IMG/VR virus record: IMGVR_UViG_3300045988_091197
Origin: a virus
DNA length: 43,466 nt
Strand: one strand, 5' to 3'
The notes beneath the pieces were generated by a model. That model saw only the letters and a program-made list of their open reading frames with translations, made no database searches and was not told the origin of the DNA. Every line of letters begins with the position of its first letter. Positions within the stretch are counted from its first letter, which is position 1. Of the stretch, positions 18,001 through 43,184 are shown in pieces. The position numbers and the translations under genes are program-made.

Positions 18001-21000
18001 ATAAAGGCGGACGGCGGAAGCCTTGACGACATGGATTTAACGCCGCGCGGGACGCTTATAGGCTATCTTGAAAACTGCTATCCCATTATCCAGTACGAGG
18101 AATACACGGACGAAAACGGTGCTGTAAGGTCGCGCCCGGTAACTGACAGCAAGGGGGAGCCGGTAATTGACAGAGCCGCGGTGAGAAAGCGCGACGCGCT
18201 TATCGAGGAGGTCAAGCAGATGGCCATCCCGGACGGCCCGCTTGAAATGCTGTTTAATGCGTTCGGCACGGATCAGGTTGCAGAGATAACCGGCAGAACG
18301 CGGCGCGTTGTGCCGCGCAAGCAGCCGGACGGCAGCATAAAAAGAGTTGAGGAGAGTCGCAGCAAGGCACACACGGCGGCGGACGTGCAGGCGTTTCAGG
18401 ACGGGGATAAGCGAATACTTGTATTCTCGGACGCCGGCGGCACGGGCAAGAGCTATCACGCGTCCAGAACTGCGAAAAACCAGCAGCAGCGCGTACATTA
18501 TGTATTGCAGCCCGGCTGGGTAGCGTCAAAAGCTGTGCAGGGCTTTGGCCGGACACACCGCAGCAATCAGAGCAGTGCACCTATCTATAAGCTCGTAACC
18601 ACAAACATCAAAGGGCAGAAGCGCTTTACATCGACGATTGCCCGCAGGCTCGACCAGCTCGGCGCGCTTACCAAAGGGCAGCGAGACACCGGCAGCGGAA
18701 TGTTCGGCGCAAAGGACAACCTTGAAACCGACCTCGCGCGGGACAGTCTGAGAGAATTTTACCGCCGACTCGGCAAAAACCAAATCGACGGCATTGACGG
18801 CATGGACACCTTGCAGCGGCTTGGACTAAAGAGCAAGTTCACGGATGAGTTCGGCGCGTTCAAGCTTGACGACTCAACGTCGCGAGATATAAGCACCTTC
18901 CTTAACCGCATACTTGCGCTTGAGGTAGACGAGCAGAACACGCTGTTCGATGCATTTATCAACATCTACGAGACGGAAATGGAAGCCGCGATTCAGGCCG
19001 GTACGCTTGACACCGGTATGGAGAATGTCAAGGCGGACAAAATCGAGATTGTCGACGACAAGGTTATCAAGGAGCAGGAGACAACCGGCGCGGCGACGCA
19101 CTATATTCAGGCGAAGATCTATACCAAGCCCAAAATCATATCCACGGTTGCGGCGGCGGAGGGGCTGCGCAGCGGCTTCATGGGGATATACAAGACCAAA
19201 AACGGAGATATCCGCGCAGTGTACCGCATTGCGGACAAAACAACGGAATGGGGCGAGGTACAAAAGCAATACAAGCTGCAATCTCCGAATGCCGCCAAAT
19301 CCTCCATATGGAAGGAGAGCAGCTTTGAAAAGAACGCTGAGCTGCTGCCAAAGGACGAATGGCAGACCGAATGGGACAAGGAGATAAAAAAAGTCCCCGA
19401 ATATAACGAGGACACTAAGCATATGCTCACCGGTACGCTGCTGCCGATATGGTACGCCCTCCCCGATGACGGCAACACAAAGGTGCAGCGGCTTGTTGCT
19501 GACGACGGCTCCACATATCTCGGCAGGGTAATAAGCCCTGACAAGATTGACGACGTTCTCAAGCGCTTCAATCTCAACCGTACGAAGGAGATTTTTACGG
19601 CTGAAAAGGTGATGGACTCGGCAATAAAGCGAGGGACGCGATTTGACCTGACATATTACAGGGCTCAACTGTTCAGAAGCCGTGTAAGCGGAGAATGGCG
19701 GCTTGAATATAAGCAGGGGCAGAACTCATGGTACGTCGCTCGGCAGTTCCCGGAGCTTATCCACGAGAAAATAAACTATCAAGACCGCTATTTCGTGCCT
19801 CTCAACGATGAGGGACGAGCAGTGCTTGACAAAATTCTCGAAGAAAACCCGGTAACAAATACGAGCGAGGGCAGCGACTCAGACGGCTATGTGCAGTATT
19901 CAAAGCGCGGCAGGGACGATTCCTCGGTCGATTCATACGACCCGGAAACGGCCAACGTGAAAGAGCAGATCGCGAACAGCAGTGCTGAGCTGAACAAGAT
20001 GACCGTCGCGGCGACCGTTAACGCGCCTGCAAACTTCACGAGCAAAGAAGCGGCAAGTAAATGGGCTATCGCTATGCTTGAGCACACGGGATTTCAGGTT
20101 GACCGGAAGAACTTCGGGAAAATCTTTTTCTCTCAAAAGGATATCAAAACAAGCGTTAGGTATGCTGACACGGCGGCAGAGAAAGCCGCTTTCGCGGCTC
20201 TGCCGGCTGTGCTGAAAAAGGGCATAGAAATAGGCAGACACAGTAACCACAAAGCGCGAGGCAAGGAAACGGTTACTTTTGCGGCACCGGTTATCCTAAA
20301 CGGTGTACGCGGTAACATGGGAGTGGTCGTTAATCTCAGGGGCAATCACTACTATGCGCACAGAATCGTGCTACCGGACGGCGGGATATTTGTTCTGTCA
20401 GAAAACGAAAATGATGCAGCACGAGAATTGCCCCGGGGAGTGACCATTTCTGGCTCTCTTGCCGACGCCACAAGTACTGCATCTGTAAATAGTATAGCAT
20501 CCGGCTTGAATTTTGACAAGGAAAATTTTGCAACAGAGGTTGACACGGAACTTTCAACACGCGCACCGGCGCTTTCAGACCGTGAGGTTCTGCAATATGC
20601 GGCTAAAAACATAGACGCAAGCACCCTCACACCGGCGCAGGCTGACGCGCTGAGAATATTCAAGGAGCGCGTTGACAGGCTGCAAGAGCTTCAGGAGCAG
20701 CGGCAGGAGCTGGGGCGTGAGTACCGCGAGCAGCAATTCAAACGACCGGTAGACCGCAACGCGGCGACGGTGACGAAAAACAGGATGGGAGTACTCGACG
20801 GCAAAATCCGGGCGCTCGAAAACAGCGTTGTTTCGCTTGAGGACAAAGATGTATTGCGTCAGGTGCTGAAAGAAGCGCGGCGGTTTGTTGAAAAACGCGA
20901 GCGGACGCAGGGCGCACTGAGGCTGAAAGAATACCGCGAAGCGCGCAACGAAAGCGCAAGCCTCAAGAAGTACCGCGCAAGGGTGCTCAAAGAGGCTGAA

Positions 21001-24000
21001 ACACTGCGGGACATGCTTATGAATCCAAGCAACAAAAACGTGCTGAAACGCGTACCCGGAGCGATACAGAAAACGGTAGCGGACTTTATAGGCGCGATAG
21101 ACTTCACCAGCAAACAGGCTTTGCGCGGCGGAGCGGCGACGCAGGCCGACCAGCGCATTATGTCACAGATGCGGGCGATGCGGGATGCAATCAAGGATAA
21201 CATTGACCTTCAAGGCGAATACTCAGGGTACGCCGACTTGCCTCCTGACTTTATGGATAGCTTCCAGAAGCAGATAGACCGGATGCAGGAGTTAGTAAAC
21301 GAGAGCAGCGGAGAGTATGTTATAAACAAGATGTCTGCCGCTGAACTGAGAGAGCTTGCGCACACGCTGCGAGATATACGCCGATATATTCAGGACATGA
21401 ACCGCTTCCACGAAAACGCCATGTTCCAACACGCTTACGATGCGGGTGAGGATACGATAGCCGACTTGGAGGCAAAGGGCAAGGCGCGGAGACTGCGCAA
21501 CAACGAGATATATAACGGGCTTGCGTGGAAGTATATGCGCCCCGTTTACGGCCTTGAACGTCTCGGAAGGGGCGGAAAGTCAATAAGCGACGAGTTCAGA
21601 AAAGGGCAGGCAAAGCAGGCATTCCTTGCAAAGCAGGTTATAGATTTCTCTGAAAAAGCTTATACCGCTAAGGAAGCGCAGGCGTGGAGCCGCGAAGTGA
21701 AAGCCGTACAGATAGGCGACTCGACCGTACACATGACGGCTGCGCAGGCGATGAGCTTTTATTGCCTTATGCGCAGGCCGCAGGCGAGGACTCATATCTT
21801 CGGGGACGGTATCCGCGTTGCCAACTTTGAAAACGGGAGGATGGTCTACCGCGACGAAGGGCACCGGCTGACGGTCGGAGAGGCAAACGCAATTATAAAC
21901 AGCCTGAGCGAGAGGCAAAAGGCCGTTGCGGATGAGCTGCAGAAGTTTATGTCCGAAGAGTGCGCCGAGTGGGGCAACTATGTCAGCCTTGCGCGCTTTG
22001 GGACAAAGCTCTTCGGCGAAGAAAACTATTTCCCGATAAACTCCGACGGGCGTTATTTGCAGGCCACGGCAGACGAAAGTCCAAGCAACGCAAGCCTTTA
22101 TGCGCTGCTGAATATGGGCTTTACCAAAGAGCTGAACGAAAAGGCGAGGAACCGCATAGTGCTGTATGACATTTTCGACGTGTTTGCAAACCACGCAGCG
22201 AGTATGACGCAGTACAGCAGCTTCGCTCTGCCGGTTCTCGATGCGCTTAAATGGTTCAACTACAAAAATGATGAAACATCGGTTCGTGACAAGATGGCGG
22301 CGGCTTACGGTGCGCCGACCGAGAGCAAGCCGGGAAGCGGGTCGAAGAGCTATGCCGAAAGCTTTGTGCTGAATTTGCTCAAACAGTATAACGGCACAGC
22401 GGCTCGCGGAGATGCATTTGATGCATGGGGAATAAAGGGATTGCACCTGTTTAACCGTGCACAGGTTGCTTTTAACGTGCGAGTTATCATACAACAGCCG
22501 ATGGCCATTACGCGCGCGGCGCAGATCATCTCGCCCACGAAGCTTGCGAAAGGACTATCCGTGTCAGCGACGCAGATGAAAACCCTTGCGGCAGAGATGG
22601 AGGCGCACAGCGGAATAGCGGCGTGGAAAGGACTCGGTTTTTATGACACGAACATCTCGCGCGGCCTTACGGCACTGATAAAGCACGATCAGAGCTTCGC
22701 CGGCAAAGTTACGGAAGCAGGCATGACAGGCGCGGAGCAGGCAGACCGCTTTACGTGGGCGGCTATGTGGTATGCCTGCAAGGACAGTGTGAAGCGCGGC
22801 GACTACAAGACCGAGGGCGAGTATTTTGATGCAGTAACGGAACTTTTCGAGGACGTCATATACAAAACTCAGGTTGTCGACAGCGTACTTACAAAGGCGG
22901 AATTTCTGAGAGCGCAGGGATTCTTCCCACGAATGATGGGCTCCTTCATGTCGGAGCCGAGCGCGACTGTATCCATGCTTATGGACACGTATATGCAGTA
23001 CACCGACGCGCTTCAAAGCGGCATGAGCAAAGGGGCAGCGTGGCAGAAGTACGGAGATACCATACGCAGGACTATAACGGTATATGCCATCGGGCAGGTG
23101 CTCATATCTGCGGTTCAGGCCGTGGCGGATGCATGGCGCGACGACGATGACTACCAGACATTCTGGGAGAAGTATCTCGAAGCACTCAAGGGGAACCTTG
23201 TTGATAATCTGCTTCCGTTCGGCAATATCCCGTATGTTTCAGAACTGTATGACCTTGCAAAGAACCTTTTATCAAAGTTTGGCGTGGACACATACGGCAG
23301 CGGCATTTCAAACGGATGGATGCAGTATGCGCAGTATCTTGAAAGAGCGACAGAAATCTTCGCGGATAAGATTCGTGGCAGCAATACGCGGTACACCACA
23401 TGGGGTGGCGTGTACAACCTGCTGCGCGCCGTGGCCGGCATGACCGGGTTGCCTTTGGCTACAGCCACACGCGAGGTCATCGACGTGTGGAACAACACCA
23501 TAGGCGCAGCAAACCCTGACAGGAAGATAAAGACCTATGATTCCGGCGCAAAGGCGAGTATTAAGTACGCATATCAGGACGGTTATCTGAGCTTCGACGA
23601 GGCGGTTGAAAAGCTCCGCGAGAAGGGCGTGGAAACCGACAAAAACAAGGCGTACTTAATGGTCAAGAGCTGGGATACGGGCGGAAAGTACAGCGAATTG
23701 ACGGCTGCGGCTGCATCCGGCGACCGGGCAGCGTTCAGAGCGGCGCTGCAGGAACTCGTAGAACACGGCGTTGCGGAGAAAGACGCTTACAATGCGGTGA
23801 GGAAGGATATCAAGGAACGGTATCTGGACGGAGACATCACCGAAGTGCAGGCAATAAGCGCGCTTACTGCGTTCGGTGACAAAGACCGCGACGAAGCGCA
23901 AGGCTATGTTCAGGGCTGGCAGTTCAGCCGGGATTACCCGCAGTATGACTGGACGGATGCTGAGATAACAACATACAGCACAGACATAAAGCGCACGGGG

Positions 24001-24213
24001 ATAAGCCCGGATGTATTCGACAGGTATCTCACAGAACTTGATAACTGCAAGGGAACCGACGATGACGGCGACGGCAAGACCGACAGCGGCAGCGTCAGGG
24101 CGCAGGCGATTGTTATGATAGATGCACTTCCGATAAGCGCGGCGCAGAAAGACGCGCTGTATCTTCTCAACTGGAAGGAAAGCACTCTGAGCAAGACGCC
24201 GTGGCACAGCTAA
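12025..24213 (+). CDS. Giant 4062-aa polyvalent protein with zincin-like HExxH, N6-adenine DNA methyltransferase and SNF2/strawberry-notch-type helicase modules plus a long C-terminal region (DarB-like, probably virion-packaged and ejected)
   Basis: Uninterrupted ORF with AGGAGG just upstream. HEFTH is at 14470-14484. MTase motif I VLEPSAGIGG is at 15790-15819 and motif IV NPPF at 15988-15999. Helicase motifs are GDGTGVGKG at 17029-17055, DEAH at 17353-17364 and QGFGRTHRSNQ at 18538-18570. Confidence 0.9.
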   Translation: MNSIDRLLAHVDEEEQKRSNAGETAERRGSTGTSDPIKDLLDHVAAVESGELPRYTSTDYSETSYQEPQREQVSFGERIKNFFKGSDNRRDESGLSGSQTQRFRDLQAQLNEIDRNSGYATTAETSDELEQQRRNIIRQLDELDEEAGREARTYSPSDRIDNVIKSWLNRTGAGYTNAAGSILDLGSSKRKSLRQQQEEADMARFAERNPEAAAEAQAAEERYRQSLRGARDSTYKAADKMQSSAERQLAKSEYGTSAAGSFAIDAAMTGADIITDAAFAKLTGITGLANMALRVYGSESQDARLSGDDAETAAAKGLKAATIEVITEKLAGPFELAYGKSLGRQAMGKTAGKIARVFDRLETNGVLKWVFDTAGEGAEEGLSDVLNIIADHVFNWDDGDMTILEEIASDKDDILYDMILGAFVGAFGATTSAIAEGEQGRRVKNIYGKEGAAALVDEGLLSGEGTKSRRLAERYNEKLQSGRELTGREMSQLIEANDMAFADESPENRGADASEPEQTDHVEKAISKIAKNDTEADLLREDFTLGEADAETYARGAEEAYNYGKLGVSMEDAVQNGSFINDLTEAQRDHAYKLGQQESSADTLTEEDAAQGAEADTADANAENVDAYAAKYGDEAPAVIASYNSGEVKGIGEFSTAFDAAYNMGRSGVPESELSASAALSYLSDAQRKTAFDMGRASASKAAAQAQTEVKSAAKPGKLNRKGVVKGEGVTLKELKSTFNDRQNTAYRLLSTFAEATGVDVVLYKTSAEPDGSFASEQGRFTWKDDTIYVDINSGLYSSKDVESLGKYTMMRTFAHEFTHFIEKWNPAQYNDFRSFVFGTLAGKGESVNDLIESKMSLDSSGKLDYEQASREVIADAMVDILPDSNIVQRLASEHESIYKKLLQKLRDFTARLKQYYKEITTRPGREAQALKEQVGEGTRYMQSIVDMWTNAAEGAVRSYKAAEGTEQRIENKAKPEATKLKEAPKQKPKTEQPKAKESAAETAEKAPPKENDELTRLRDRLDALRYTEVNGFGFAVTATAGKDGEAVYRARINRVASDPLHIEDAKAVYSEAFTSLEDAIESLVAVAENNNLLTPVEADKEATETKETVAQEEAPAKSDEKNREMESGTPSEKTAYRILTEYLAAGKKLTSKELYSICDETFNGTQAEGAYDRKAAYDAMELAVNRYLLTNAADLNGDTAEDARRGLERVQGILSLLPTQNVRTQEMEQFQQFSTPPNIAYLAAWAADINSSDLVLEPSAGIGGLAAFAKAWGAEVAVNELSERRLAVLKAMGFDHVFNENAEQIDNVLPESIKPTAVIMNPPFSSTAGRTATNKTSNAERHINQALARLNDGGRLVAILGRGMADKAYSKYWDKLRQDYNIRANISIDGENYKKYGTTFDVQLVVIDKTGAQGSAETVTGSYKDLAEIPNVLEGIRNDRSAETERDSAVAGVQEASPVEQGGEGTVRAPVDTADGGADAGVLELGSRPGSTGEPRSADIHGEVQRGIQDASAADGAAVQQQRADAADKKSGKRTDRGADRGEERNTARDAGGQLNIQRLGAGGLETESARGQVTEKGRSNKRSDDGVYADYVAPELTVKGSKPHPAVLVESSAMSAVFMPKATYTPHLPENVIKNNLSTEQLVSVTYAGQAHEQTLPNGERKGFFIGDGTGVGKGREISGIILDNFEQGRDKAVWISMNDKLFADAQRDWADTTGRGKDEIHLQGKTKLQNKIDFGSGILFTTYPTLRTEKGQLSRINQIVEWLGKDFDGVIAFDEAHNMGNLLGSSGKFGRTKGSAMAAAAVKLQSLLPKARVVYVSATAATDVQGLAFASRLGLWGRGTAFTDVNDFVSKIQSAGLAAMELVVRDMKAMGVYVSRSISYNGVSYDTVQHDLDPMQTEIYNTMSRAWQKTMGSVEESLKSTGGVHNSNAKQLAIGQYYSAMQRFYNQVLTSMSMPSVIADMKKELAAGKSCVLQIVNTNQAEADRQIASIKADGGSLDDMDLTPRGTLIGYLENCYPIIQYEEYTDENGAVRSRPVTDSKGEPVIDRAAVRKRDALIEEVKQMAIPDGPLEMLFNAFGTDQVAEITGRTRRVVPRKQPDGSIKRVEESRSKAHTAADVQAFQDGDKRILVFSDAGGTGKSYHASRTAKNQQQRVHYVLQPGWVASKAVQGFGRTHRSNQSSAPIYKLVTTNIKGQKRFTSTIARRLDQLGALTKGQRDTGSGMFGAKDNLETDLARDSLREFYRRLGKNQIDGIDGMDTLQRLGLKSKFTDEFGAFKLDDSTSRDISTFLNRILALEVDEQNTLFDAFINIYETEMEAAIQAGTLDTGMENVKADKIEIVDDKVIKEQETTGAATHYIQAKIYTKPKIISTVAAAEGLRSGFMGIYKTKNGDIRAVYRIADKTTEWGEVQKQYKLQSPNAAKSSIWKESSFEKNAELLPKDEWQTEWDKEIKKVPEYNEDTKHMLTGTLLPIWYALPDDGNTKVQRLVADDGSTYLGRVISPDKIDDVLKRFNLNRTKEIFTAEKVMDSAIKRGTRFDLTYYRAQLFRSRVSGEWRLEYKQGQNSWYVARQFPELIHEKINYQDRYFVPLNDEGRAVLDKILEENPVTNTSEGSDSDGYVQYSKRGRDDSSVDSYDPETANVKEQIANSSAELNKMTVAATVNAPANFTSKEAASKWAIAMLEHTGFQVDRKNFGKIFFSQKDIKTSVRYADTAAEKAAFAALPAVLKKGIEIGRHSNHKARGKETVTFAAPVILNGVRGNMGVVVNLRGNHYYAHRIVLPDGGIFVLSENENDAARELPRGVTISGSLADATSTASVNSIASGLNFDKENFATEVDTELSTRAPALSDREVLQYAAKNIDASTLTPAQADALRIFKERVDRLQELQEQRQELGREYREQQFKRPVDRNAATVTKNRMGVLDGKIRALENSVVSLEDKDVLRQVLKEARRFVEKRERTQGALRLKEYREARNESASLKKYRARVLKEAETLRDMLMNPSNKNVLKRVPGAIQKTVADFIGAIDFTSKQALRGGAATQADQRIMSQMRAMRDAIKDNIDLQGEYSGYADLPPDFMDSFQKQIDRMQELVNESSGEYVINKMSAAELRELAHTLRDIRRYIQDMNRFHENAMFQHAYDAGEDTIADLEAKGKARRLRNNEIYNGLAWKYMRPVYGLERLGRGGKSISDEFRKGQAKQAFLAKQVIDFSEKAYTAKEAQAWSREVKAVQIGDSTVHMTAAQAMSFYCLMRRPQARTHIFGDGIRVANFENGRMVYRDEGHRLTVGEANAIINSLSERQKAVADELQKFMSEECAEWGNYVSLARFGTKLFGEENYFPINSDGRYLQATADESPSNASLYALLNMGFTKELNEKARNRIVLYDIFDVFANHAASMTQYSSFALPVLDALKWFNYKNDETSVRDKMAAAYGAPTESKPGSGSKSYAESFVLNLLKQYNGTAARGDAFDAWGIKGLHLFNRAQVAFNVRVIIQQPMAITRAAQIISPTKLAKGLSVSATQMKTLAAEMEAHSGIAAWKGLGFYDTNISRGLTALIKHDQSFAGKVTEAGMTGAEQADRFTWAAMWYACKDSVKRGDYKTEGEYFDAVTELFEDVIYKTQVVDSVLTKAEFLRAQGFFPRMMGSFMSEPSATVSMLMDTYMQYTDALQSGMSKGAAWQKYGDTIRRTITVYAIGQVLISAVQAVADAWRDDDDYQTFWEKYLEALKGNLVDNLLPFGNIPYVSELYDLAKNLLSKFGVDTYGSGISNGWMQYAQYLERATEIFADKIRGSNTRYTTWGGVYNLLRAVAGMTGLPLATATREVIDVWNNTIGAANPDRKIKTYDSGAKASIKYAYQDGYLSFDEAVEKLREKGVETDKNKAYLMVKSWDTGGKYSELTAAAASGDRAAFRAALQELVEHGVAEKDAYNAVRKDIKERYLDGDITEVQAISALTAFGDKDRDEAQGYVQGWQFSRDYPQYDWTDAEITTYSTDIKRTGISPDVFDRYLTELDNCKGTDDDGDGKTDSGSVRAQAIVMIDALPISAAQKDALYLLNWKESTLSKTPWHS
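16340..16750 (+). CDS. Candidate overprinted gene (136 aa) in the +1 frame of the giant gene's methylase-helicase linker
   Basis: GGAGGG at 16326-16331, an 8-nt spacer, then ATG 16340. An in-frame TAA lies at 16334-16336. The product has globular, helix-like composition. About 108 of 136 codons end in G/C (hand count), while the host frame here uses mostly A/T-ending codons. Confidence 0.55.
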   Translation: MTEVQRLNATPLSQGFKKLLPWNRAERELYVLQWIRQTVELMQGYWNSGADPEVLANLEALTFTEKYSEAYRMLLPPTEPLYSNSELMRQIKRVESAQTEEQIEEKSVTLLEMLVDNSTFSDSELADLKPSLHEDR

Positions 24214-28787: not shown

Positions 28788-29906
28788 TCATTCCTTGCCG
28801 CCTTTGTCAAGGACATTGATAGCAGCGTGGGCACTCTGCATATCGGGATGAATATAGCGCTGGGTGGTCGTAAACTTGGTATGCCGCATGATCTCCTGTA
28901 TCACGCTGGGCGCAGTCTTGGCGAGCGCCAGCGCCGTCGCCGTGGTATGGCGGCACGAGTACGGCGGCAGATCGCGCACCTTTGCCCTGGCGAGGGCGGC
29001 GTGATACTCGGTATAAAAATTATCCGAGTTCATGCCGACGATGCGCCCCTTCTTGCTGCTCACGTTGGCGAGGATATCCTGCACGAGCGGTTCGAGCCAG
29101 TCGGGATAAATCAGCGGTGTTGATTTGCGCTTCTTGGTTTTCAGGCCGCAGCCGATGATCTCGTGCGTATCGGTGTGTATCATGTCGGCCGTGCAGCGCA
29201 GCAGCTCACCGGGCATCATGCCGCTGTATATCATCAGCAGCGGGAAGCGCATAAACAAGTCACCGTTGTCGTAGGCCGTCCACAACGCATTTATCTCATC
29301 CTCTGCAAACGGCTTTTGCTCTGTTTCAGCAAGCGGCGGCAGTTCGACAAACTCTGCGAGATTTGTTCGCGCCTGCCCTTCGGCGACGGCGCGCTTGTAT
29401 AGCTTGCGAAGCATGGTTTTCATGTCCTTCGCGGGATAGTACGTATCAGTTTGCGAATCCACGCAGCTTTGCAGATTATCTATTGTAAGCTCCGCTACGG
29501 GTACATTTTTGATGGAGTCTAGCCGACGCCATGCGATATCATGCGCACACTGCTTGGAGCTGCCGAGCTTATCGTATGCGCCGCTCTTTTCCCACCATCT
29601 GTGGTAGTCTCTGAGCGTAGGCCGGTACACCTGCTTCGGCGCGGTTTCTGTGGGATTGGCCGCAAAGGCGAGCGCGGCGGTTTTAGATGGGAAGCCTCCC
29701 TTCGTTCCGCGCCGCTGGTGCAGGCTGCCGGACGCATCAACAAACGTGTCAATTGTCCATTGCGCAGTCCACGTCCTGCCACGCCGGTACGCCGTGCCCT
29801 GCCCGTTCCCTCGCCCCCTACGCGGCTGCGCGTTTTGCCGCGCCCCGCAGAACATGCAAAATGCGCTTATATCCGGTATTTCTTTTCTGCACTTACGGCA
29901 TATCAT
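28788..29906 (-). CDS. int: Tyrosine integrase with an N-terminal CxxC...CxxC zinc ribbon
   Basis: The gene starts MICRKCRKEIPDISAFCMFCG and overlaps the upstream gene by ATGA. Catalytic contexts ...YSCRHTTAT... and ...HTKFTTTQRYIH are present. It is adjacent to the tRNA-fragment attP. Confidence 0.85.
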   Translation of the reverse strand: MICRKCRKEIPDISAFCMFCGARQNAQPRRGRGNGQGTAYRRGRTWTAQWTIDTFVDASGSLHQRRGTKGGFPSKTAALAFAANPTETAPKQVYRPTLRDYHRWWEKSGAYDKLGSSKQCAHDIAWRRLDSIKNVPVAELTIDNLQSCVDSQTDTYYPAKDMKTMLRKLYKRAVAEGQARTNLAEFVELPPLAETEQKPFAEDEINALWTAYDNGDLFMRFPLLMIYSGMMPGELLRCTADMIHTDTHEIIGCGLKTKKRKSTPLIYPDWLEPLVQDILANVSSKKGRIVGMNSDNFYTEYHAALARAKVRDLPPYSCRHTTATALALAKTAPSVIQEIMRHTKFTTTQRYIHPDMQSAHAAINVLDKGGKE

Positions 29907-30451
29907 TTTCTTAACATCCTCAGGGCGTACACCATGACACACACGGCGGCAACGACTATCAAACCAAAAATAACGGCAAGGGCGCTTGACCTGGCGGACT
30001 GAAAAAGCCCCGCCGTTACAAGCTGGGCATCCCACACCATATACGAAATTAAACACACGAGCAGCAGGGCGCAGACAGCTAAAAGCGCGTATACGACAGG
30101 CCTGCGGCTTGCAAGCTGCGCTTTGAGCATGGCGTTGACCTCTTCGAGCCGCTTGACGTCTCCGGCCTGACGGACATTATCCATTTCAAGCTCATGCACG
30201 GCGGCGAGGTCTGACGCGGGGCAAAGCCCGCACAGTTCATCCAGAGACAAGCCGAGGGTATCACATATCGCTGCCTGCTCAAATAGCTTTGGGTTTGGCG
30301 CTGTATCGGCGCTCTGGGTGGCTATAGCAGAGTATGATACGCCGGACTGCTCCGACAATTCGGCGAGGGAAAGGCGTCGGTCATTACGCGCGTCGGTTAC
30401 TTTACGATTATAGCTGTCAAAGTACGGGATAAGACGCTGGTACGGGGTCAT
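29903..30451 (-). CDS. XRE-family HTH protein with two C-terminal transmembrane helices, translationally coupled to int
   Basis: GGGAG RBS upstream of ATG 30451. HTH sequence LSLAELSEQSGVSYSAIATQ. TM segments VVYALLAVCALLLVCLISYMVW and ALAVIFGLIVVAAVCVMVYAL. Confidence 0.75.
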   Translation of the reverse strand: MTPYQRLIPYFDSYNRKVTDARNDRRLSLAELSEQSGVSYSAIATQSADTAPNPKLFEQAAICDTLGLSLDELCGLCPASDLAAVHELEMDNVRQAGDVKRLEEVNAMLKAQLASRRPVVYALLAVCALLLVCLISYMVWDAQLVTAGLFQSARSSALAVIFGLIVVAAVCVMVYALRMLRK

Positions 30452-38765: not shown

Positions 38766-39440
38766 ATGAACGAAAAAATAGTTACCAGTCAAGCCGAGCT
38801 TGACGCGATACCCGTAGATTACAGCGGCAGAATCATCATAAAGTTCGGCACCCCGGCCAAGCGTGCAGTCGTGAACAAAAAGTATCTGCTCCCCGTCGAG
38901 GCGTATGACAACAGCTCCGTCTGTGCGTATGGCAACAGCTCCGTCTGTGCGTATGGCAACAGCCAAGTTGTAGACGCACATAGACGAGGCAACATAAAGG
39001 CCTCCGGAAATGCCCGCATAGTGTATAACCCCGACAATATCACCGATTGGGCGTCGGCAAACGGTATCACCATAACCGACGGTAAAATCAGACTGTATAA
39101 GGCCGTACATAAACGCGATGGCAAATACGTTGCCGATTGGGATAACAATTTCACATACACCATCGGCGCGGTCGCCGAGGCAAATGGGTTTACCACCGAC
39201 CCCGTGGAAGATTGCGGGCAGGGAATACACATGGCAACGCTGGGGTGGTCTGCTGCGTATGGGCGAGGCTGGGGCGATATAGCGCTGCTTGAGCTTGAGA
39301 CCGACGCAGACGAGATAGTCGTGCCGCTGTACGAAACCGGCAAAGTCCGCGCCCCGAAAGCGCTGGTTATCCGCGAGGTACCGCTGGAAGAGGCGGGCAT
39401 TATGGGCAAGATTCTGGCGAAGAGGAGGACGAATGGATAA
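38766..39440 (+). CDS. Hypothetical protein with an internal 8-aa tandem repeat (SSVCAYGN)
   Basis: AAGGAG RBS; 224 aa. A 24-bp tandem repeat lies in the coding sequence. Confidence 0.7.
   Translation: MNEKIVTSQAELDAIPVDYSGRIIIKFGTPAKRAVVNKKYLLPVEAYDNSSVCAYGNSSVCAYGNSQVVDAHRRGNIKASGNARIVYNPDNITDWASANGITITDGKIRLYKAVHKRDGKYVADWDNNFTYTIGAVAEANGFTTDPVEDCGQGIHMATLGWSAAYGRGWGDIALLELETDADEIVVPLYETGKVRAPKALVIREVPLEEAGIMGKILAKRRTNG
38901..38964. repeat. 24-bp tandem repeat, about 2.6 copies, in frame
   Basis: gcgtatgAcaacagctccgtctgt / gcgtatgGcaacagctccgtctgt / gcgtatggcaacagcc. Confidence 0.9.
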
Positions 39441-39453
39441 AGAACATACAGCG

Positions 39454-39567
39454 ATGGAGCGGCTGCGCCTCGCGTCGGACATGTCGCTGCGCCTGTATAA
39501 GCAGCCGCTTATGAAGCCCAGAGCCGTAAAGCCTACAAGGAAACAAAAACAAGGGGATAACGCATGA
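39454..39567 (+). CDS. Possible 37-aa ORF (MERLRLASDMSLRLYKQPLMKPRAVKPTRKQKQGDNA), perhaps a gene remnant
   Basis: Translated by hand. Its stop codon overlaps ATG 39564. No clear RBS. Confidence 0.25.
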   Translation: MERLRLASDMSLRLYKQPLMKPRAVKPTRKQKQGDNA

Positions 39568-40253
39568 TACATGTTGGCGACATAACAAAGCTTAACGGCG
39601 CAAAGCTTGAGCCTGTCTGGTGCATCACAGGCGGCTCACCGTGCCAGGATTTATCCATCGCCGGGAAACGCGCCGGTTTGGCGGGAGCGCGAAGCGGCCT
39701 GCTTATGGAGCAGGTGCGCATCGTAAAAGAAATGAGGGAGGCGGACAAAAGGAATGGACGGACAGGTGACATGGTTAGACCTCGGTATCTCGTGTGGGAA
39801 AACGTGGTCGGAGCCTTTAGCAGCAACAAAGGAAAAGACTTCGCAGCCGTGCTCGAAGAGATCATCAAAATCGTCGAACCGGAAGCCCCCGGTATTGAAG
39901 TGCCTGAAAAGGGCTGGCCTACCTGGGGAGGGTATCACGATGAAGTGGGAGGACGATGGAGCGTGGTGTGGCGAACTCACGACGCGCAATACTGGGGAGT
40001 GCCCCAACGCCGTCGTCGTATCTCGGTTGTCGCAGATTTTGGAGGAGACACCGCATCCGAAATACAATTTGACCGCAAAAGCATGTCAGGGGATATTACG
40101 GCGAGCGGAGCGTCGGGGGAAGGATCTGCCGAAGCTGCTGAAGCAGGTTTTAATCCAGCAGTCGCAAGGAGCCTCACCGCAAGAGCGGACGGAAGCCCCT
40201 GCGCCGACAGAGACCCCAACATCGTATGCAGTCCGCATCAGGGGGGGCTGTGA
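39564..40253 (+). CDS. C5-cytosine DNA methyltransferase, part A (motifs IV, VI and VIII only)
   Basis: GGSPCQ has its PCQ at 39639-47. ENV is at 39798-39806 and QRRRR at 40005-40019. No FxGxG motif I is present. The gene stops at 40251 immediately after a G7 run. Confidence 0.75.
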   Translation: MIHVGDITKLNGAKLEPVWCITGGSPCQDLSIAGKRAGLAGARSGLLMEQVRIVKEMREADKRNGRTGDMVRPRYLVWENVVGAFSSNKGKDFAAVLEEIIKIVEPEAPGIEVPEKGWPTWGGYHDEVGGRWSVVWRTHDAQYWGVPQRRRRISVVADFGGDTASEIQFDRKSMSGDITASGASGEGSAEAAEAGFNPAVARSLTARADGSPCADRDPNIVCSPHQGGL

Positions 40254-41124
40254 CGGCGGAGGAAAAGGCGCGTTAGTGCAGGCAGAGAAAAGCGGAACAC
40301 TGGGCTGCGGCAATGACCAGACGATATTCTGCCTGCAAGGCGATGGCATCGACAGAGCCGACACTGCCGGATGTAACGGTAAAGGCTGGCGGGAAAATAC
40401 GTGCTATACGTTGAATACCATAGACCGACCGGCAGTGTGCGCCGGGTTCAAGCTGGGCAACAGCGAACAGGCGCGGAGCATAGGCTATCAGGAGGAACTG
40501 TCTCCTACACTGAACGCCGAGTGCGGCGGGAATAAGCCCGCAGTGGTGGCGCTGGACATGACACACGCCTGTGACGTCATCCGCGAGTGCGGGCAAATCG
40601 TGCCCAGTCTCCAAGCGCGTATGGGCACCGGTGGCAATCAAGTTCCGCTGACATACCAGATGAACGGGTTTGGAGATTACCGCGCCGCCGAGGTTGCAAG
40701 CAGTTGTAAGCAACGGGACTTTAAGGACAGCACAGACCTTGTTATCACACACATGGTGGTGCGCCGCCTGACGCCGATGGAGTGCGAACGGCTGCAAGGG
40801 TTTCCCGACCGCTGGACTGACATCGGCGAGTGGACGGACGAAAAGGGAAAGAAGCACAAGGACGCGGACAGCCCACGGTACAAGGCGCTGGGCAACTCCA
40901 TCGCCCTTCCCTTCTGGGACTGGATGCTGCGGCGCATGGCGCGGTATCTGCCCGAACACGCTACTCTCGGCTCGCTCTTTGACGGCATAGGAGGTTTTCC
41001 GTTGGTCTGGCAGGAGACACACGGCGATTATACGGCGCGTTGGGCATCGGAGATTGAGGAGTTCCCGATAGCGGTGACAAAGCTTCGTTTCCCTGAACCT
41101 GAAACAAAGGAGAAACTGCAATGA
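39940..41124 (+). CDS. C5-cytosine DNA methyltransferase, part B (target-recognition region, motifs IX and X, then motifs I and II at the C-terminus); a different frame that overlaps part A
   Basis: GGAGGG lies 7-8 nt before ATG 39940. RRLTPMECERLQGFP is at 40762-40806, GNS at 40891-40899 and FDGIGG at 40978-40995. The ORF-track start at 39754 gives junk-like sequence up to 39940. The true start, or a frameshift join with part A, is uncertain. Confidence 0.6.
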   Translation: MKWEDDGAWCGELTTRNTGECPNAVVVSRLSQILEETPHPKYNLTAKACQGILRRAERRGKDLPKLLKQVLIQQSQGASPQERTEAPAPTETPTSYAVRIRGGCDGGGKGALVQAEKSGTLGCGNDQTIFCLQGDGIDRADTAGCNGKGWRENTCYTLNTIDRPAVCAGFKLGNSEQARSIGYQEELSPTLNAECGGNKPAVVALDMTHACDVIRECGQIVPSLQARMGTGGNQVPLTYQMNGFGDYRAAEVASSCKQRDFKDSTDLVITHMVVRRLTPMECERLQGFPDRWTDIGEWTDEKGKKHKDADSPRYKALGNSIALPFWDWMLRRMARYLPEHATLGSLFDGIGGFPLVWQETHGDYTARWASEIEEFPIAVTKLRFPEPETKEKLQ

Positions 41125-41285
41125 GATTTAAGGCGGCAAAAACAACAAACGAATTCATATTGATACCAACATTCGGCTGGATAAATGAGCGCTATTATTA
41201 CGGCTACCCGGTTATCGCCATTGCTTTTGCATGGCTGTGCTGGCGGTGCAAAATCGAAATCGGAGTCAAGAAGTATAGGAGGTAA
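41121..41285 (+). CDS. Small hypothetical protein (54 aa, one hydrophobic segment)
   Basis: Coupled by ATGA to the upstream gene. Translated by hand. Confidence 0.45.
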   Translation: MRFKAAKTTNEFILIPTFGWINERYYYGYPVIAIAFAWLCWRCKIEIGVKKYRR

Positions 41286-41288
41286 ATT

Positions 41289-41489
41289 ATGGCTGAACTG
41301 AAACCTTGCCCATTCTGCGGTGGAGAAGTTGAAGAACGTGGCGGCTCATGCAATTACGGGAAACACATTATGACATTGGACTTAAAGTGTAAAGGTTGTG
41401 AAACCGCTTTTAAGTTTAAGGCAAAATGGTCAAGCGACCCGTATAACGAAAAGCATGAAGCATGGAACAGGAGGGCTGACAATGGCTGA
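41289..41489 (+). CDS. Lar-family restriction-alleviation-like zinc-ribbon protein
   Basis: The sequence MAELKPCPFCGG...CKGC...EAWNRRA matches the Lar family signature. AGGAGG RBS. Confidence 0.65.
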   Translation: MAELKPCPFCGGEVEERGGSCNYGKHIMTLDLKCKGCETAFKFKAKWSSDPYNEKHEAWNRRADNG

Positions 41490-41826
41490 AAGAAACCTTG
41501 TTGCGGTCAGTATCAAGCATACGATATACGGTTGGAAGTTCGGTATGCCGTGCTGGCTGTGGGGAAGCAGAACAAAAGACGAAGAGAAGCGGTCGTTTGG
41601 CGGTTATACACAATATCCTAACAACGCAGAAGTGTACTCTCTCGAAGAGTGGCAGGAAAGCGGTTATGGTGCTGGCGATGTATGCAAGGTGGATGAACCG
41701 GTGCAGATGTGTATCGGTTTTTGCAAGAAATACAAAAAGTACGACACCGTACTTGTTCCACTCGATCAGTACGTCAAATACTGCGAGTGCGCTTGCTTGC
41801 CACTGGATAAACCAAAGGAGGACTGA
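41482..41826 (+). CDS. Hypothetical protein (114 aa, Cys-rich)
   Basis: ATG 41482 follows GGAACAGGAGGG and overlaps the Lar-like gene by 8 nt. Confidence 0.6.
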   Translation: MAERNLVAVSIKHTIYGWKFGMPCWLWGSRTKDEEKRSFGGYTQYPNNAEVYSLEEWQESGYGAGDVCKVDEPVQMCIGFCKKYKKYDTVLVPLDQYVKYCECACLPLDKPKED

Positions 41827-42357: not shown

Positions 42358-42591
42358 ATGTTTGGAAGGCGGTATGACATGGGCAAACATTACATATCCA
42401 AAGAGGCGTGCTGCCCCTTTTATCGTTGTGAGGACGCGCAGGCAATATACTGCGAGGGAGTAGAGCCGGGGACGGCGCTCAGACTGACGTTTGCAGGCAG
42501 CGCCATTGAGTACAAGCATATTTATTGCCGAGATATCCACAACTATGCGGATTGCAGGATTGCCCGGATGCTTGCAGGCAAATGGGCATAG
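42358..42591 (+). CDS. Small Cys-rich protein upstream of terS (alternative start ATG 42379)
   Basis: Sequence ...KEACCPFYRCEDAQAIYCEGVEPG...YCRDIHNYADCRIARML. Confidence 0.6.
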   Translation: MFGRRYDMGKHYISKEACCPFYRCEDAQAIYCEGVEPGTALRLTFAGSAIEYKHIYCRDIHNYADCRIARMLAGKWA

Positions 42592-42595
42592 TTCA

Positions 42596-42626
42596 AACGG
42601 GAGGTTTCTTGCCTCCCGTTATTTTT
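42596..42626 (+). terminator. Rho-independent terminator separating the early genes from the packaging operon
   Basis: aacgggagg tttcttg cctcccgtt, followed by ATTTTT. Confidence 0.85.
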
Positions 42627-42665
42627 CGCTGTAGGGGGGATTTAGTTTCGGAGCTGCGAGATGCT

Positions 42666-43184
42666 ATGCTTGGAGCAGACGACCGGGAGGGAGGCAACTT
42701 GAGCAAAAAGCAGGGCAAGCCCAATTGGGCGAAAATCCAAGCTGAATATATCGCGGGCGGCACATCGTACAGGCTGCTGTGTGCAAAGTACGGAGTGCCC
42801 ATGTCGACGCTTCGCCGGCACGCTACGAGCGAACAGTGGGTGGAAAAGGCTGCACAGGTCAAGCGCGAGGCGGACGTGGCCATACACGAGGCTGCTGTGT
42901 CCACACGGATAGACGCGGCGGCAGATTTTGAAACGCTTGCGGCGGCCATGACACAGCGCATAGCAGAGGCGATTGAGCGCTGCGATACCTCAAACGCAAA
43001 GGCCGTAAACCTGCTTACCGACGCGCTGGCGACCCTGCAGCGCATACAGGGGCTTAACAAGGATAGTCTGGATAAGGCCGAGCAGCAGGCGCGCATTGAC
43101 AAGCTTCGCAAGGACAGCGAGAGCAGCACAACGTCTGAGGTAACGGTAAGTTTCGCCCCGGACGTCAGGGAGTATGGCGTATGA
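42666..43184 (+). CDS. terS: Terminase small subunit (HTH type); start uncertain (ATG 42666 or TTG 42699)
   Basis: Sequence ...KPNWAKIQAEYIAGGTSYRLLCAKYGVPMSTLRRHATSEQW... The stop codon overlaps the terL ATG (ATGA). The ORF-track start at 42525 would cross the terminator and overlap the upstream gene. Confidence 0.7.
   Translation: MLGADDREGGNLSKKQGKPNWAKIQAEYIAGGTSYRLLCAKYGVPMSTLRRHATSEQWVEKAAQVKREADVAIHEAAVSTRIDAAADFETLAAAMTQRIAEAIERCDTSNAKAVNLLTDALATLQRIQGLNKDSLDKAEQQARIDKLRKDSESSTTSEVTVSFAPDVREYGV

Follow-up and report, generated by a model that had tools for sequence, protein, structure and literature searches.

We show that the locus at 39564–41124 of the window (the whole stretch of viral DNA analysed here, 43,466 nucleotides, IMG/VR record IMGVR_UViG_3300045988_091197) is a genuine, natural circular permutant of a predicted phage C5-cytosine DNA methyltransferase (C5-MTase), in which the putative AdoMet-binding first part (the strand of motif I, the helix after it and motif II) is relocated to a place behind the motif X helix at the C-terminus. 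As the chain is broken between motifs II and III, the protein begins at motif III and the gene order becomes III-IV-VI-VIII-TRD-IX-X-I-II. This complete set of motifs is carried by two overlapping open reading frames (ORFs) on the + strand. The explanation that we favour, with a probability of about 0.7, joins three elements: a natural permutant, an enzyme predicted to consist of two polypeptides, and an insert that together with a poly-G tract would choose the reading frame. The features referred to below are as follows.

39564–40253, + strand: ORF A, 229 aa, the catalytic half, with motifs III, IV (catalytic Cys27), VI and VIII
39576–39590, + strand: motif III, GDITK, in ORF A
39630–39647, + strand: motif IV, GGSPCQ, in ORF A
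39798–39806, + strand: motif VI, ENV, in ORF A
40005–40019, + strand: motif VIII, QRRRR, in ORF A
39754–41124, + strand: ORF B, in the +1 frame, 456 aa from the ATG at 39754, with Bn domain, linker, TRD modules and motifs IX, X, I and II in that order
39940–40149, + strand: dual-coding stretch, with motifs VII-VIII and ADFGG..ILFE in frame A and the conserved C-terminal half of Bn (GECPN..SRLSQILE..PKYNLTAKACQGILRRAERRGKDLPKLL) in frame B
40149–40218, + strand: 70-nt (3n+1) insert, encoding the linker LIQQSQGASPQERTEAPAPTETPTS in frame B; boundaries uncertain by a few bases, from a DNA alignment of 18 loci
40225–40761, + strand: variable target-recognition region of about four short modules (..SGTL.., ..YTLNT.., ..SPTLNA.., ..PSLQA..)
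40241–40247, + strand: poly-G tract G7, 3 nt ahead of the ORF A stop codon (TGA)
40762–40806, + strand: motif IX, RRLTPMECERLQGFP, in ORF B
40891–40899, + strand: motif X, GNS, in ORF B
40903–40950, + strand: motif X helix, ALPFWDWMLRRMARYL, in ORF B
40951–41097, + strand: PEHAT linker, motif I, motif II and AVTKLRFPE in ORF B, corresponding to PF00145 positions 4–44
40975–40995, + strand: motif I, LFDGIGG, in ORF B
41044–41061, + strand: motif II, ASEIEE, in ORF B

The ATG of ORF A is preceded at 7 nt by AAGGGG, and its stop at 40253 falls past motif VIII, with the TRD and all later motifs following in frame B behind an ATG of their own. An alternative ORF B start at ATG 39940, with GGGAGGG 7 nt upstream, gives 394 aa and is the one used in the contig's own public gene call (P0005); many public proteins cover either 98–99% or 85% of ORF B. 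The TRD modules are swapped whole among relatives, which gives protein lengths from 390 to 690 aa, and from this shuffling we infer that the enzyme is multispecific.

The motifs characteristic of PF00145/Dcm-type C5-MTases (I, II, IV, VI, VIII, IX, and X after the TRD) are all present, but they are permuted and spread over two ORFs instead of standing colinearly from I to X in one polypeptide. ORF A matches profile positions 47–131 of PF00145 (E 2.4e-20) and ORF B positions 258–314 (E 6e-10), with the last 61 residues of ORF B corresponding to positions 4–44. The head thus begins at position 47 and the tail finishes at 44, which places the new N-terminus between motifs II and III. Residue 5 of ORF A aligns with M.HhaI residue 59, and the ORF A region as a whole with M.HhaI residues 59–112 and 153–170. 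When tail and head are joined synthetically, residues 4–147 match PF00145 positions 4–131 in one unbroken stretch with 123.7 bits, whereas the native order scores 108.2 bits over four separate stretches. The same tail+head construct also aligns with the canonical NatCom_9287 phage MTase, at 54% identity over 222 aa (E 2e-70) and without a gap at the junction ('..KLRFPE|MIHVGDITKL' against '..TKHLPFMKHYGDISQM'). At the opposite end the motif X helix runs into motif I in a single frame (..GNSIALPFWDWMLRRMARYL-PEHAT-LGSLFDGIGG..), a junction kept in relatives. The locus therefore displays the start between II and III, the covalent X-I link and the restored colinearity after re-permutation by which a Class B permutant is recognised (PMC5944983). 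Its NCBIfam TIGR00675 scores, 63.5 and 36.6 bits, lie under the 100.65-bit cut-off of that family. An earlier note on this DNA had proposed the permutation, as well as the reconstruction of a canonical N-terminal domain from the C-terminus of ORF B and the N-terminus of ORF A, and both ideas are borne out by the permuted order of the Pfam segments and by the seamless junction. It had placed the start of the polypeptide at motif IV, which has to be corrected, since the protein begins at motif III, four residues ahead of GDI.

The relocated motifs are maintained: diversity in the C-terminal motifs I and II, and in ORF A of split loci, falls mostly on the third codon position. For LGSLFDGIGG it is 0.087/0.061/0.518 over the three positions, with the linker more variable at 0.24/0.24/0.36, and for ORF A in the type-2 loci it reaches 0.277 at the third position against 0.119 and 0.051 at positions 1 and 2. 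Purifying selection acts on motifs I and II at their C-terminal site and, in split loci, on both ORF A and the tail.

A permuted order could also be an artefact or a chance juxtaposition, either a misassembled tandem repeat or an MTase truncated at its N-terminus with the 5′ remnant of another MTase gene behind it. Adjacent MTase genes are indeed common in phages (e.g. L006), and the cassette arose by rearrangement of a PAPS reductase locus, as described below. However, an independent assembly from another sample (L109, ERZ28661992) is 100% identical over 2912 nt and no repeated MTase segment was found within the region, on which grounds misassembly, an objection anticipated in the earlier note, was rejected. 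A further objection raised there, a hidden motif I upstream, was rejected as well: none occurs before 39564, where the upstream ORFs are a DUF5758-like gene and the PAPS reductase remnant. Furthermore, at least 79 protein clusters share the in-frame fusion of X to I, which cultured phages have too, and the fused motifs are under the purifying selection just described; as far as sequence data can tell, an artefact is refuted, and we regard it as extremely improbable. Many relatives have the permuted order in an intact single ORF, among them L002, L005 and L061, and 79 of the 120 best homologue clusters combine a III-IV start with a I-II end. Among the 120 best homologues none has motif I at the N-terminus (0/120), and none carries it at both ends, as a tandem-duplicate intermediate of the possible duplication-truncation origin would.

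The contiguous IX-X-I-II tail occurs in only 10 phage records of the collection searched, including the cultured Faecalibacterium phages Toutatis and Lelie, and within that collection the permuted tail is confined to gut Clostridia phages. The scan of genome contigs added only five MAG loci, from Clostridia and Oscillospiraceae, and the host assignment is coarse for this reason. The surroundings of the locus in the window reveal how it is inserted.

39433–39567, + strand: 44-aa ORF, an N-terminal PAPS reductase remnant, without MTase motif and without Pfam match
39514–41106, + strand: MTase cassette, in place of codons 28–298 of the PAPS reductase gene

Phages with an identical downstream Lar-like gene have a full 304-aa PAPS reductase at this site; homology to them ends at window position 39513 and restarts at 41107, and the first 27 residues of the 44-aa ORF are identical to the PAPS reductase of one of the related loci (L102). 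The gene moves as a cassette among temperate phages of gut Clostridia, and in the window's phage it took the place of the greater part of a PAPS reductase gene. Directly behind the catalytic Cys codon, 39 of 69 close relatives have 4 additional nucleotides (TAGA or TAGC) that cause a stop and a frameshift, so the family often appears to be inactivated; the window is intact at this site.

What sets the frame of the TRD-IX-X-I-II tail? We propose that the 70-nt insert and the slippery poly-G tract do so together, with frame A giving a single chain and frame B two chains. The tract ranges from G5 to G8 among relatives, and the insert is missing from single-chain relatives. With the insert, G7 puts the tail in frame B (13 loci) and G6 in frame A (5 loci); without it, G7 puts the tail in frame A (22 loci) and G8 in frame B (13 loci). 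Overall the tail lies in frame A, frame B and the third frame in 45, 36 and 4 loci, respectively, counts that do not represent independent events, as the loci are related to one another. Among states one G-slip away, the third frame is seen in 1 locus without the insert (G6) against 13 in the alternative state (G8), and in 0 loci with the insert (G8) against 5 (G6). The window would thus stand a single G from the single-chain form, as one G fewer in its G7 would join ORF A to the tail. Tract length varies between near-identical genomes and shifts the frame, as in a phase-variable locus. At another tract Toutatis has G9 and Lelie G14, neither of them in frame. The earlier note had described the gene as split over two frames, and two overlapping ORFs are indeed present, but the split is not a one-off frameshift: it is a state that recurs, is apparently under selection and goes with a conserved +1-frame ORF, and not simple decay.

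This nested ORF is termed Bn, and several observations mark frame B as coding. Within the dual-coding stretch the codon-position diversity pattern switches from frame A to frame B, and phages of Proteobacteria, Actinobacteria, Verrucomicrobia and Firmicutes conserve the peptide of frame B but not frame A. Bn is represented by 2658 representative clusters, with the match nearly always at the protein N-terminus, and proteins of Bn-TRD-IX-X(-I-II) layout form many diverged clusters. Its phages include those of gut Clostridia, Escherichia phage P1 (dmt), Mycobacterium phage Omega, Caulobacter phage DMCA and phages of Vibrio, Pseudomonas, Burkholderia, Pasteurella and Akkermansia. The Bn ORF lies in the +1 frame of the MTase genes in nine other phages tested, including P1 dmt, and a Bn HMM run over eight other phage MTase genes matched in the +1 frame only. 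In P1 it spans 66713–67201 of AF234172 and would encode 162 aa. Records that we inspected carry no annotation of Bn, no Pfam family matches it even at E up to 10, and a profile search found no PDB homologue; HhaI matches in that search came from one chimeric alignment row and were set aside. Residues 91–140 of the AlphaFold2 model of ORF B have pLDDT of 78–96. The C-terminal half of Bn resembles weakly the segment after motif VIII of ordinary enzymes such as E. coli Dcm (HMM 7.4 bits, rank 1/5001 against shuffles; hhalign P 0.0067, above all 200 shuffles), which may be taken as a lead rather than a finding. The N-terminus of Bn often carries Q-[VML]-[ST]-[LWIF]-F-D, which resembles a beta-clamp-binding motif and could tether methylation to replication. 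If frame B is functional as well as open, poly-G slips and 3n+1 indels could shift the tail between a state with a single chain and free Bn and one with ORF A and a Bn-tail protein. More tentatively, and with slightly less than even odds in our opinion, a large clade of phage C5-MTase genes would be dual-coding, with Bn (~135–220 codons) overlapping motifs VI-VIII and acting as an obligatory partner of the enzyme. If so, the permuted enzyme would be a switchable two-state system and not a broken gene.

In the two-chain enzyme that we propose for the window, ORF A would provide strands 3–7 of the catalytic domain, including the catalytic Cys. The AdoMet-binding strands, the helix of motif X and the small domain for DNA recognition would come from ORF B, which would open with the conserved Bn domain, encoded +1 over motifs VI-VIII. 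Once assembled, both chains would form an active methyltransferase, probably a multispecific one, which may shield phage DNA from host restriction. Fragments [62-279] and [280-61] of M.MpeI, the same two pieces, complement each other partially (PMC5944983). In these engineered enzymes the activity of the equivalent split form was no more than partial with M.MpeI and very weak with M.SssI (PMC5944983), so the natural split could be a low or OFF state. AlphaFold2 failed on a single-chain homologue (P0121, pLDDT 31 with 35 close homologues), and the fold of the permuted enzyme is for this reason deduced from its sequence only. The ORF B model is partly confident (pLDDT 55 overall), and its best Foldseek matches, the structurally solved plant enzymes DRM2 and ntDRM, are weak (E 0.045) and are taken as supportive only.

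The most serious competing possibility is that the split is a non-functional OFF or decaying allele: the 3n+1 insert would have broken a single-chain permuted gene and left ORF A as a truncated fragment, ORF B would be read just because the +1 ORF happens to be open, and no active C5-MTase would be made unless the poly-G tract slips back. Single-chain relatives are near-identical save for the insert and the G-tract length, the five loci with insert and G6 have returned to frame A, many relatives have a stop past the catalytic Cys, and the Toutatis/Lelie difference, with both phages out of frame, is the pattern expected of ON/OFF phase variation. On the other hand, a neutral OFF state is not expected to leave the third frame in just 4 of 85 loci, nor does it agree with the purifying selection on ORF A and the tail in split loci or with the many diverged clusters of Bn-TRD-IX-X(-I-II) proteins, and the engineered enzyme with the same split keeps some activity (PMC5944983). 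We consider an OFF allele unlikely. Recoding has much lower odds: transcriptional slippage or a +1 ribosomal shift on G7 would fuse ORF A to the tail as a single chain. The run does lie just ahead of the ORF A TGA, and if one G were lost, or if tRNA-Gly slipped by +1 on GGG_G, ..SPHQGGCDGGGKG.. would come in frame with the tail. However, a G7 run is short for slippage to be efficient, a search for stimulatory elements identified none (Rfam has no match in 39000–41600), and the genomic G6 and G8 variants show that the change occurs at the DNA level. Upstream of the run, moreover, the homologous frame at YAVRIRGG is frame B, and an unrelated linker would end up in the fusion. The two-polypeptide permutant with a frame set by insert and poly-G tract remains our preferred explanation.

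C5-MTases are regarded as the most uniform of DNA methyltransferases. The II/III cut is nevertheless used in nature, by phages of abundant human-gut Clostridia, and the locus offers a natural test case for the duplication-and-truncation model of topology change. It is also a natural, predicted two-fragment C5-MTase of the kind wanted for targeted-methylation tools. Pipelines that expect colinear motifs will leave such genes under family cut-offs or call them fragments. The nested +1-frame ORF and partner-swapping poly-G tracts could alter the reading of a widespread phage anti-restriction family, including P1 dmt.

Several known systems share parts of this architecture. The layout of the locus is that of a split C5-MTase like M.AquI, as ORF A ends after motif VIII and frame B carries the TRD onward. 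The two ORFs of M.AquI also overlap, but its motif order is canonical. Like M.AquI alpha/beta, gp127/gp128 of Mycobacterium phage Omega form a two-subunit C5-MTase in canonical order (I-VIII and IX-X), unlike the window. The 'Class B' permutation was engineered in a 2018 study, where it proved to be the most active and was reported as absent among natural enzymes (PMC5944983); the Kiss laboratory asked why nature avoids the II/III cut and suggested weakened AdoMet binding (PMC5944983). The window enzyme resembles this engineered form in having its N-terminus between II and III and the motif X helix joined straight to motif I, and differs from it in being natural and phage-borne, with a modular multi-unit TRD and an extra overlapping-frame domain on the second piece. 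Natural C5-MTase permutants in the literature that we consulted are of the variable-region type only (PMC5944983; bioRxiv 10.1101/2023.12.13.571470), which agrees with the earlier note's view that a natural C5 enzyme of the present order is unusual. Literature searches, whose coverage is incomplete, turned up nothing relevant on natural permutants broken at II|III, on ORFs nested within the MTase genes of phages or on phase-variable phage MTases, and this absence is accordingly no proof of novelty. M.BssHII, M.Alw26I, M2.Eco31I, M.Esp3I and M2.BsaI (type H, zeta class, 'topology F') are likewise permuted C5-MTases with all ten motifs. Their break falls in the variable region (order IX-X-I...VIII), so that each structural domain stays intact, whereas in the window enzyme it falls inside the AdoMet-binding subdomain, between II and III. 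Plant DRM2/ntDRM ('domains rearranged') also have X followed by I in one chain, but are eukaryotic, with the order VI-X then I-V, a break between V and VI and no close sequence kinship.

The C5-MTases of Bacillus phages SPR, phi3T and rho11s are similarly phage anti-restriction enzymes with rows of short exchangeable target-recognising modules; they have canonical order in a single frame, and multispecificity of the window enzyme is suggested by module shuffling only. The succession of catalytic region, TRD and AdoMet-binding region (cat-TRD-SAM) recalls the beta-class N6/N4 amino-methyltransferases (M.PvuII, M.RsrI), which differ in their chemistry, in the DPPY/SPPY catalytic motif and in keeping motif III with I-II. 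Finally, as in phasevarion methyltransferases, coding poly-G tracts vary between near-identical genomes and shift the frame. Phasevarions involve Type I or Type III mod genes of the host, which are switched ON or OFF, whereas the behaviour of the window locus is known from comparison between genomes; because its second frame is an open and conserved ORF too, a slip would swap fusion partners instead of truncating the protein.

The methyltransferase (MTase) locus consists of two overlapping ORFs on the plus strand within 39564-41124, laid out in the window as follows.

39433..39567: N-terminal remnant ORF of a PAPS reductase, 44 aa
39564..40253, plus strand: ORF A, 229 aa, begins MIHVGDITKL
within ORF A: motif III (GDITK)
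39630-39647: motif IV with the catalytic cysteine (GGSPCQ), ORF A
39798: motif VI (ENV), ORF A
40005: motif VIII (QRRRR), ORF A
39754..41124, plus strand: ORF B, 456 aa, +1 frame
40762: motif IX, RRLTPMECERLQGFP, ORF B
40891: motif X (GNS), ORF B
40975-40995: motif I (LFDGIGG), ORF B
41044: motif II (ASEIEE), ORF B

ORF B carries, in this order, the variable region, motif IX, motif X, the motif X helix, a five-residue linker, motif I and motif II. Matches to Pfam PF00145 (profile positions 47-131 in ORF A, 258-314 in ORF B and then 4-44 in its final 61 residues) bear out the permuted motif order and the split over two frames that had been read from the sequence alone. The earlier note was right about a permuted start but not about motif IV being the first motif: the chain begins at motif III, so the break falls between motifs II and III. 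When the canonical order was rebuilt in silico by setting the C-terminal motif I-II tail ahead of the head, PF00145 matched in one unbroken stretch (residues 4-147 to profile positions 4-131, 123.7 bits), against 108.2 bits over four stretches in the native order. Against the canonical 678-aa MTase of gut phage NatCom_9287, the rebuilt sequence aligns with 54% identity (222 residues, E 2e-70), and the alignment runs gap-free through the junction ('..AVTKLRFPE|MIHVGDITKL..' against '..VTTKHLPFMKHYGDISQM..'), so that joining tail to head does recreate a canonical N-terminal region, as had been proposed. The NatCom_9287 protein has a methionine at the exact start position of the permuted proteins. 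A normal motif I upstream of ORF A, which the earlier note thought would speak against permutation, was not found in the window, where ORF A is preceded by a DUF5758-like gene and the PAPS-reductase remnant. The observation is thus confirmed and its interpretation as circular permutation is supported. The DUF5758-like ORF (38766..39440) contains three tandem 24-nt repeats at 38893-38964, encoding YGNSSVCA units.

Could the locus be an assembly artefact, such as the misassembled tandem repeat considered earlier, or a one-off? As far as sequence data go, both are ruled out by an identical contig from a second sample (L109, 100% identical over 2912 nt, split included) and by relatives with the same permuted order in one intact ORF (MT836051, 591 aa; MT835513, 590 aa; contig locus L061, 487 aa, nearly identical to window ORF A plus the TRD-IX-X-I-II tail); no internal repeat was found in the MTase region. 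Two large protein searches returned at least 8000 matches each. The single-chain query's 120 best clusters include 79 that start MxHLGDI..GGSPCQ and end ..LFDGI.G..ASEIE.FPIAVTK, and an N-terminal motif I is present in none of the 120. In a set of 53 distinct sequences, LGSLFDGIGG has codon-position diversities (1/2/3) of 0.087/0.061/0.518 and motif II of 0.10-0.14 versus 0.34-0.44, with a more variable X-to-I linker (0.24/0.24/0.36); therefore the relocated motifs are under purifying selection. The contiguous IX-X-I-II tail occurs in only 10 records of the INPHARED phage collection (seven uncultured human-faecal phages and, from cultured phages, two of Faecalibacterium phage FP_Toutatis and one of Faecalibacterium phage Lelie), every other phage matching IX-X only. 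Genome matches are few, from Clostridia and Oscillospiraceae MAGs.

The permutation was not created in the window phage. In phages whose downstream Lar-like gene is identical, a full 304-aa PAPS reductase occupies the MTase position, and homology to them ends at 39513 and picks up again at 41107; therefore a 1.6-kb MTase cassette, which brought its own ribosome-binding site, replaced PAPS reductase codons 28-298. The terminal codons of ORF B (KEKLQ*; 41107-41124) come from the replaced gene. For the origin of the permutation itself, duplication followed by truncation is a hypothesis. The Lar-like restriction-alleviation protein (PF14354, E 1e-7) is encoded at 41289-41489 (+), 165 nt downstream of the MTase, and therefore two anti-restriction functions adjoin. 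Elsewhere, among the virion genes, lies a single 4062-aa ORF (12025-24213, +) that contains a segment resembling a DNA methyltransferase (phrog_6263, aa 1230-1370) and matches phrog_22978 over a long stretch; its product could be an injected anti-restriction protein of giant size. With a small terminase subunit near its end (42525-43184), a large-terminase ORF near its start (56-1282) and an integrase (28788-30056, -), the window seems to be the whole genome of a temperate phage.

Why is the chain split? In a comparison of 79 IMG/VR loci and several GenBank loci, the TRD-IX-X-I-II tail is read in frame A, giving a single chain, at 45 loci, in frame B (+1, as in the window) at 36 and in the third frame at four, counts that are not independent because the loci are kin. 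The frame is set by a 70-nt (3n+1) insert at about 40149-40218 and a poly-G tract at 40241-40247: without the insert, G7 gives frame A (22 loci) and G8 frame B (13), while with it G7 gives frame B (13, including the window) and G6 frame A (5). The window is one G from the single-chain form. One-G slips into the third frame are rare, both without the insert (G6 n=1 versus G8 n=13) and with it (G8 n=0 versus G6 n=5), and ORF A of split loci retains purifying selection (0.119/0.051/0.277). Despite the kinship of the loci, this pattern argues for upkeep of both configurations. ORF A is predicted to assemble with ORF B. A second, longer poly-G tract lies between motifs VI and VIII, G9 in Toutatis (locus L008, about 2419) and G14 in the near-identical Lelie (L096, about 1490); neither keeps frame A intact, and the two frames are fused differently in the two phages. 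The TRD (40225-40761 in the window) is in the window and its relatives a row of short modules, e.g. ..SPTL.A..G.N.P.V, varying in number (about 3 to 9) and kind, and looks similar to multispecific Bacillus phage MTases.

Many family members look inactivated or in need of a recoding step, since 39 of 69 close relatives carry a 4-nt insert (TAGA or TAGC) after the catalytic Cys codon (GGSPC*), creating a stop and frameshift inside motif IV (locus positions about 2385-2392 in L001, L009, L011-L013, L016, L021, L040 and others). It is invariably paired with a nearly invariant AT-rich 5' module and a GTG start; it may represent either inactivation that has spread or a recoding site. The window is intact here. 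In twelve relatives (L010, L014, L020, L022, L031, L033, L038, L039, L043, L048, L050, L051) ATA replaces the ATG/GTG start with AGGAGG spacing unchanged, a hint that initiation there is very weak or non-standard.

Every locus examined, canonical unpermuted relatives included, has an open +1 frame of ~140-170 codons over motifs VI-VIII. Upstream, frame A has normal codon-position diversity, highest at position 3 (0.29-0.39); over motif VIII diversity collapses (0.044/0.009/0.091), and after it the pattern flips, A position 1 (= B position 3) being most variable (0.20-0.23 versus 0.05-0.09 at A position 3), so selection acts on frame B there. No such signal was found over the first ~60 codons of window ORF B, and its real start is probably ATG 39940, used in the public gene call of the same contig, with GGGAGGG 7 nt upstream. 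An exhaustive search with the 131-aa N-terminus of B (Bn) found 2658 representative clusters (E up to 1e-3); among the matches listed, 147 of 150 have Bn at the protein N-terminus; these are stand-alone Bn proteins of 135-200 aa, or proteins in which TRD-IX-X, and in some cases I-II, comes next. No Pfam family for Bn was found. An HMM of its C-terminal half matches only the +1 frame in MTase genes of eight phages (E 7e-17 to 2e-30: Pseudomonas TC7, Vibrio 1.046.O, Burkholderia Bcep22, Akkermansia Chantilly, Pasteurella Pm86, Mycobacterium Omega, Caulobacter DMCA and NatCom_9287), and by tblastn 131 phage records carry the Bn motif. Its place in Escherichia phage P1 is a 162-aa +1 ORF inside dmt, absent from the record's 535 annotated features. 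Across phages the B-frame peptide ..LSQ(I/V)LE..P.(K/R)Y.LS.KAC.GI(L/I)RRA..RGK.LP..L..AL shows a conservation that frame A lacks there. An AlphaFold model has pLDDT 78-96 for this segment. The nested ORF occurs in C5-MTase genes of phages of many bacterial phyla, annotated in no record inspected, for example at:

39940-40149: window
1692-2180: locus L112 (P1 dmt)
1711-2184: locus L088 (Omega gp127)
1205-1729: locus L089 (DMCA)
2824-3228: locus L006

What is the role of Bn then? The C-terminal half of Bn can be aligned with residues 289-338 of E. coli Dcm, directly past motif VIII (hhalign P 0.0067, above 200/200 shuffles; HMM score first of 5001, yet just 7.4 bits). Frame-A proteins of the Bn-bearing clade are without such a segment. 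A possible role for Bn is therefore to provide it, acting in trans where the enzyme is a single chain and in cis where it is split; we offer this as a lead only. Also as a lead, the Bn N-terminal motif Q-[VML]-[ST]-[LWIF]-F-D (Q in 98 of 112 representatives) resembles the beta-clamp-binding motif QL[SD]LF. Phage TC7 encodes a DNA polymerase III beta-clamp homologue (L097, 1-111), two genes upstream of its C5-MTase; the latter bears the nested ORF, whose N-terminus, MQLTLL, resembles this motif.

The family's sequences are already public, annotated plainly as cytosine methyltransferases, and show an unexpected architecture of dual coding and frame switching. We found no paper on a natural II/III-break topology or the nested ORF, literature coverage being incomplete. 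A 2025 topology classification lists only canonical and Eco31I-type topologies for m5C enzymes, and the 27 natural permuted C5-MTases of a published REBASE search are all cut in the variable region (M.BssHII type), which bears out the earlier description of this enzyme as unusual. Plant DRM2, the top structural hit for the ORF B model but a weak one, is permuted elsewhere (VI-X, then I-V). By its motif order, the window enzyme is a natural member of a permutation class so far known only from engineering, and ORF A plus ORF B have the same layout as the M.MpeI fragments [62-279] + [280-61], which gave a partially active enzyme (PMC5944983).
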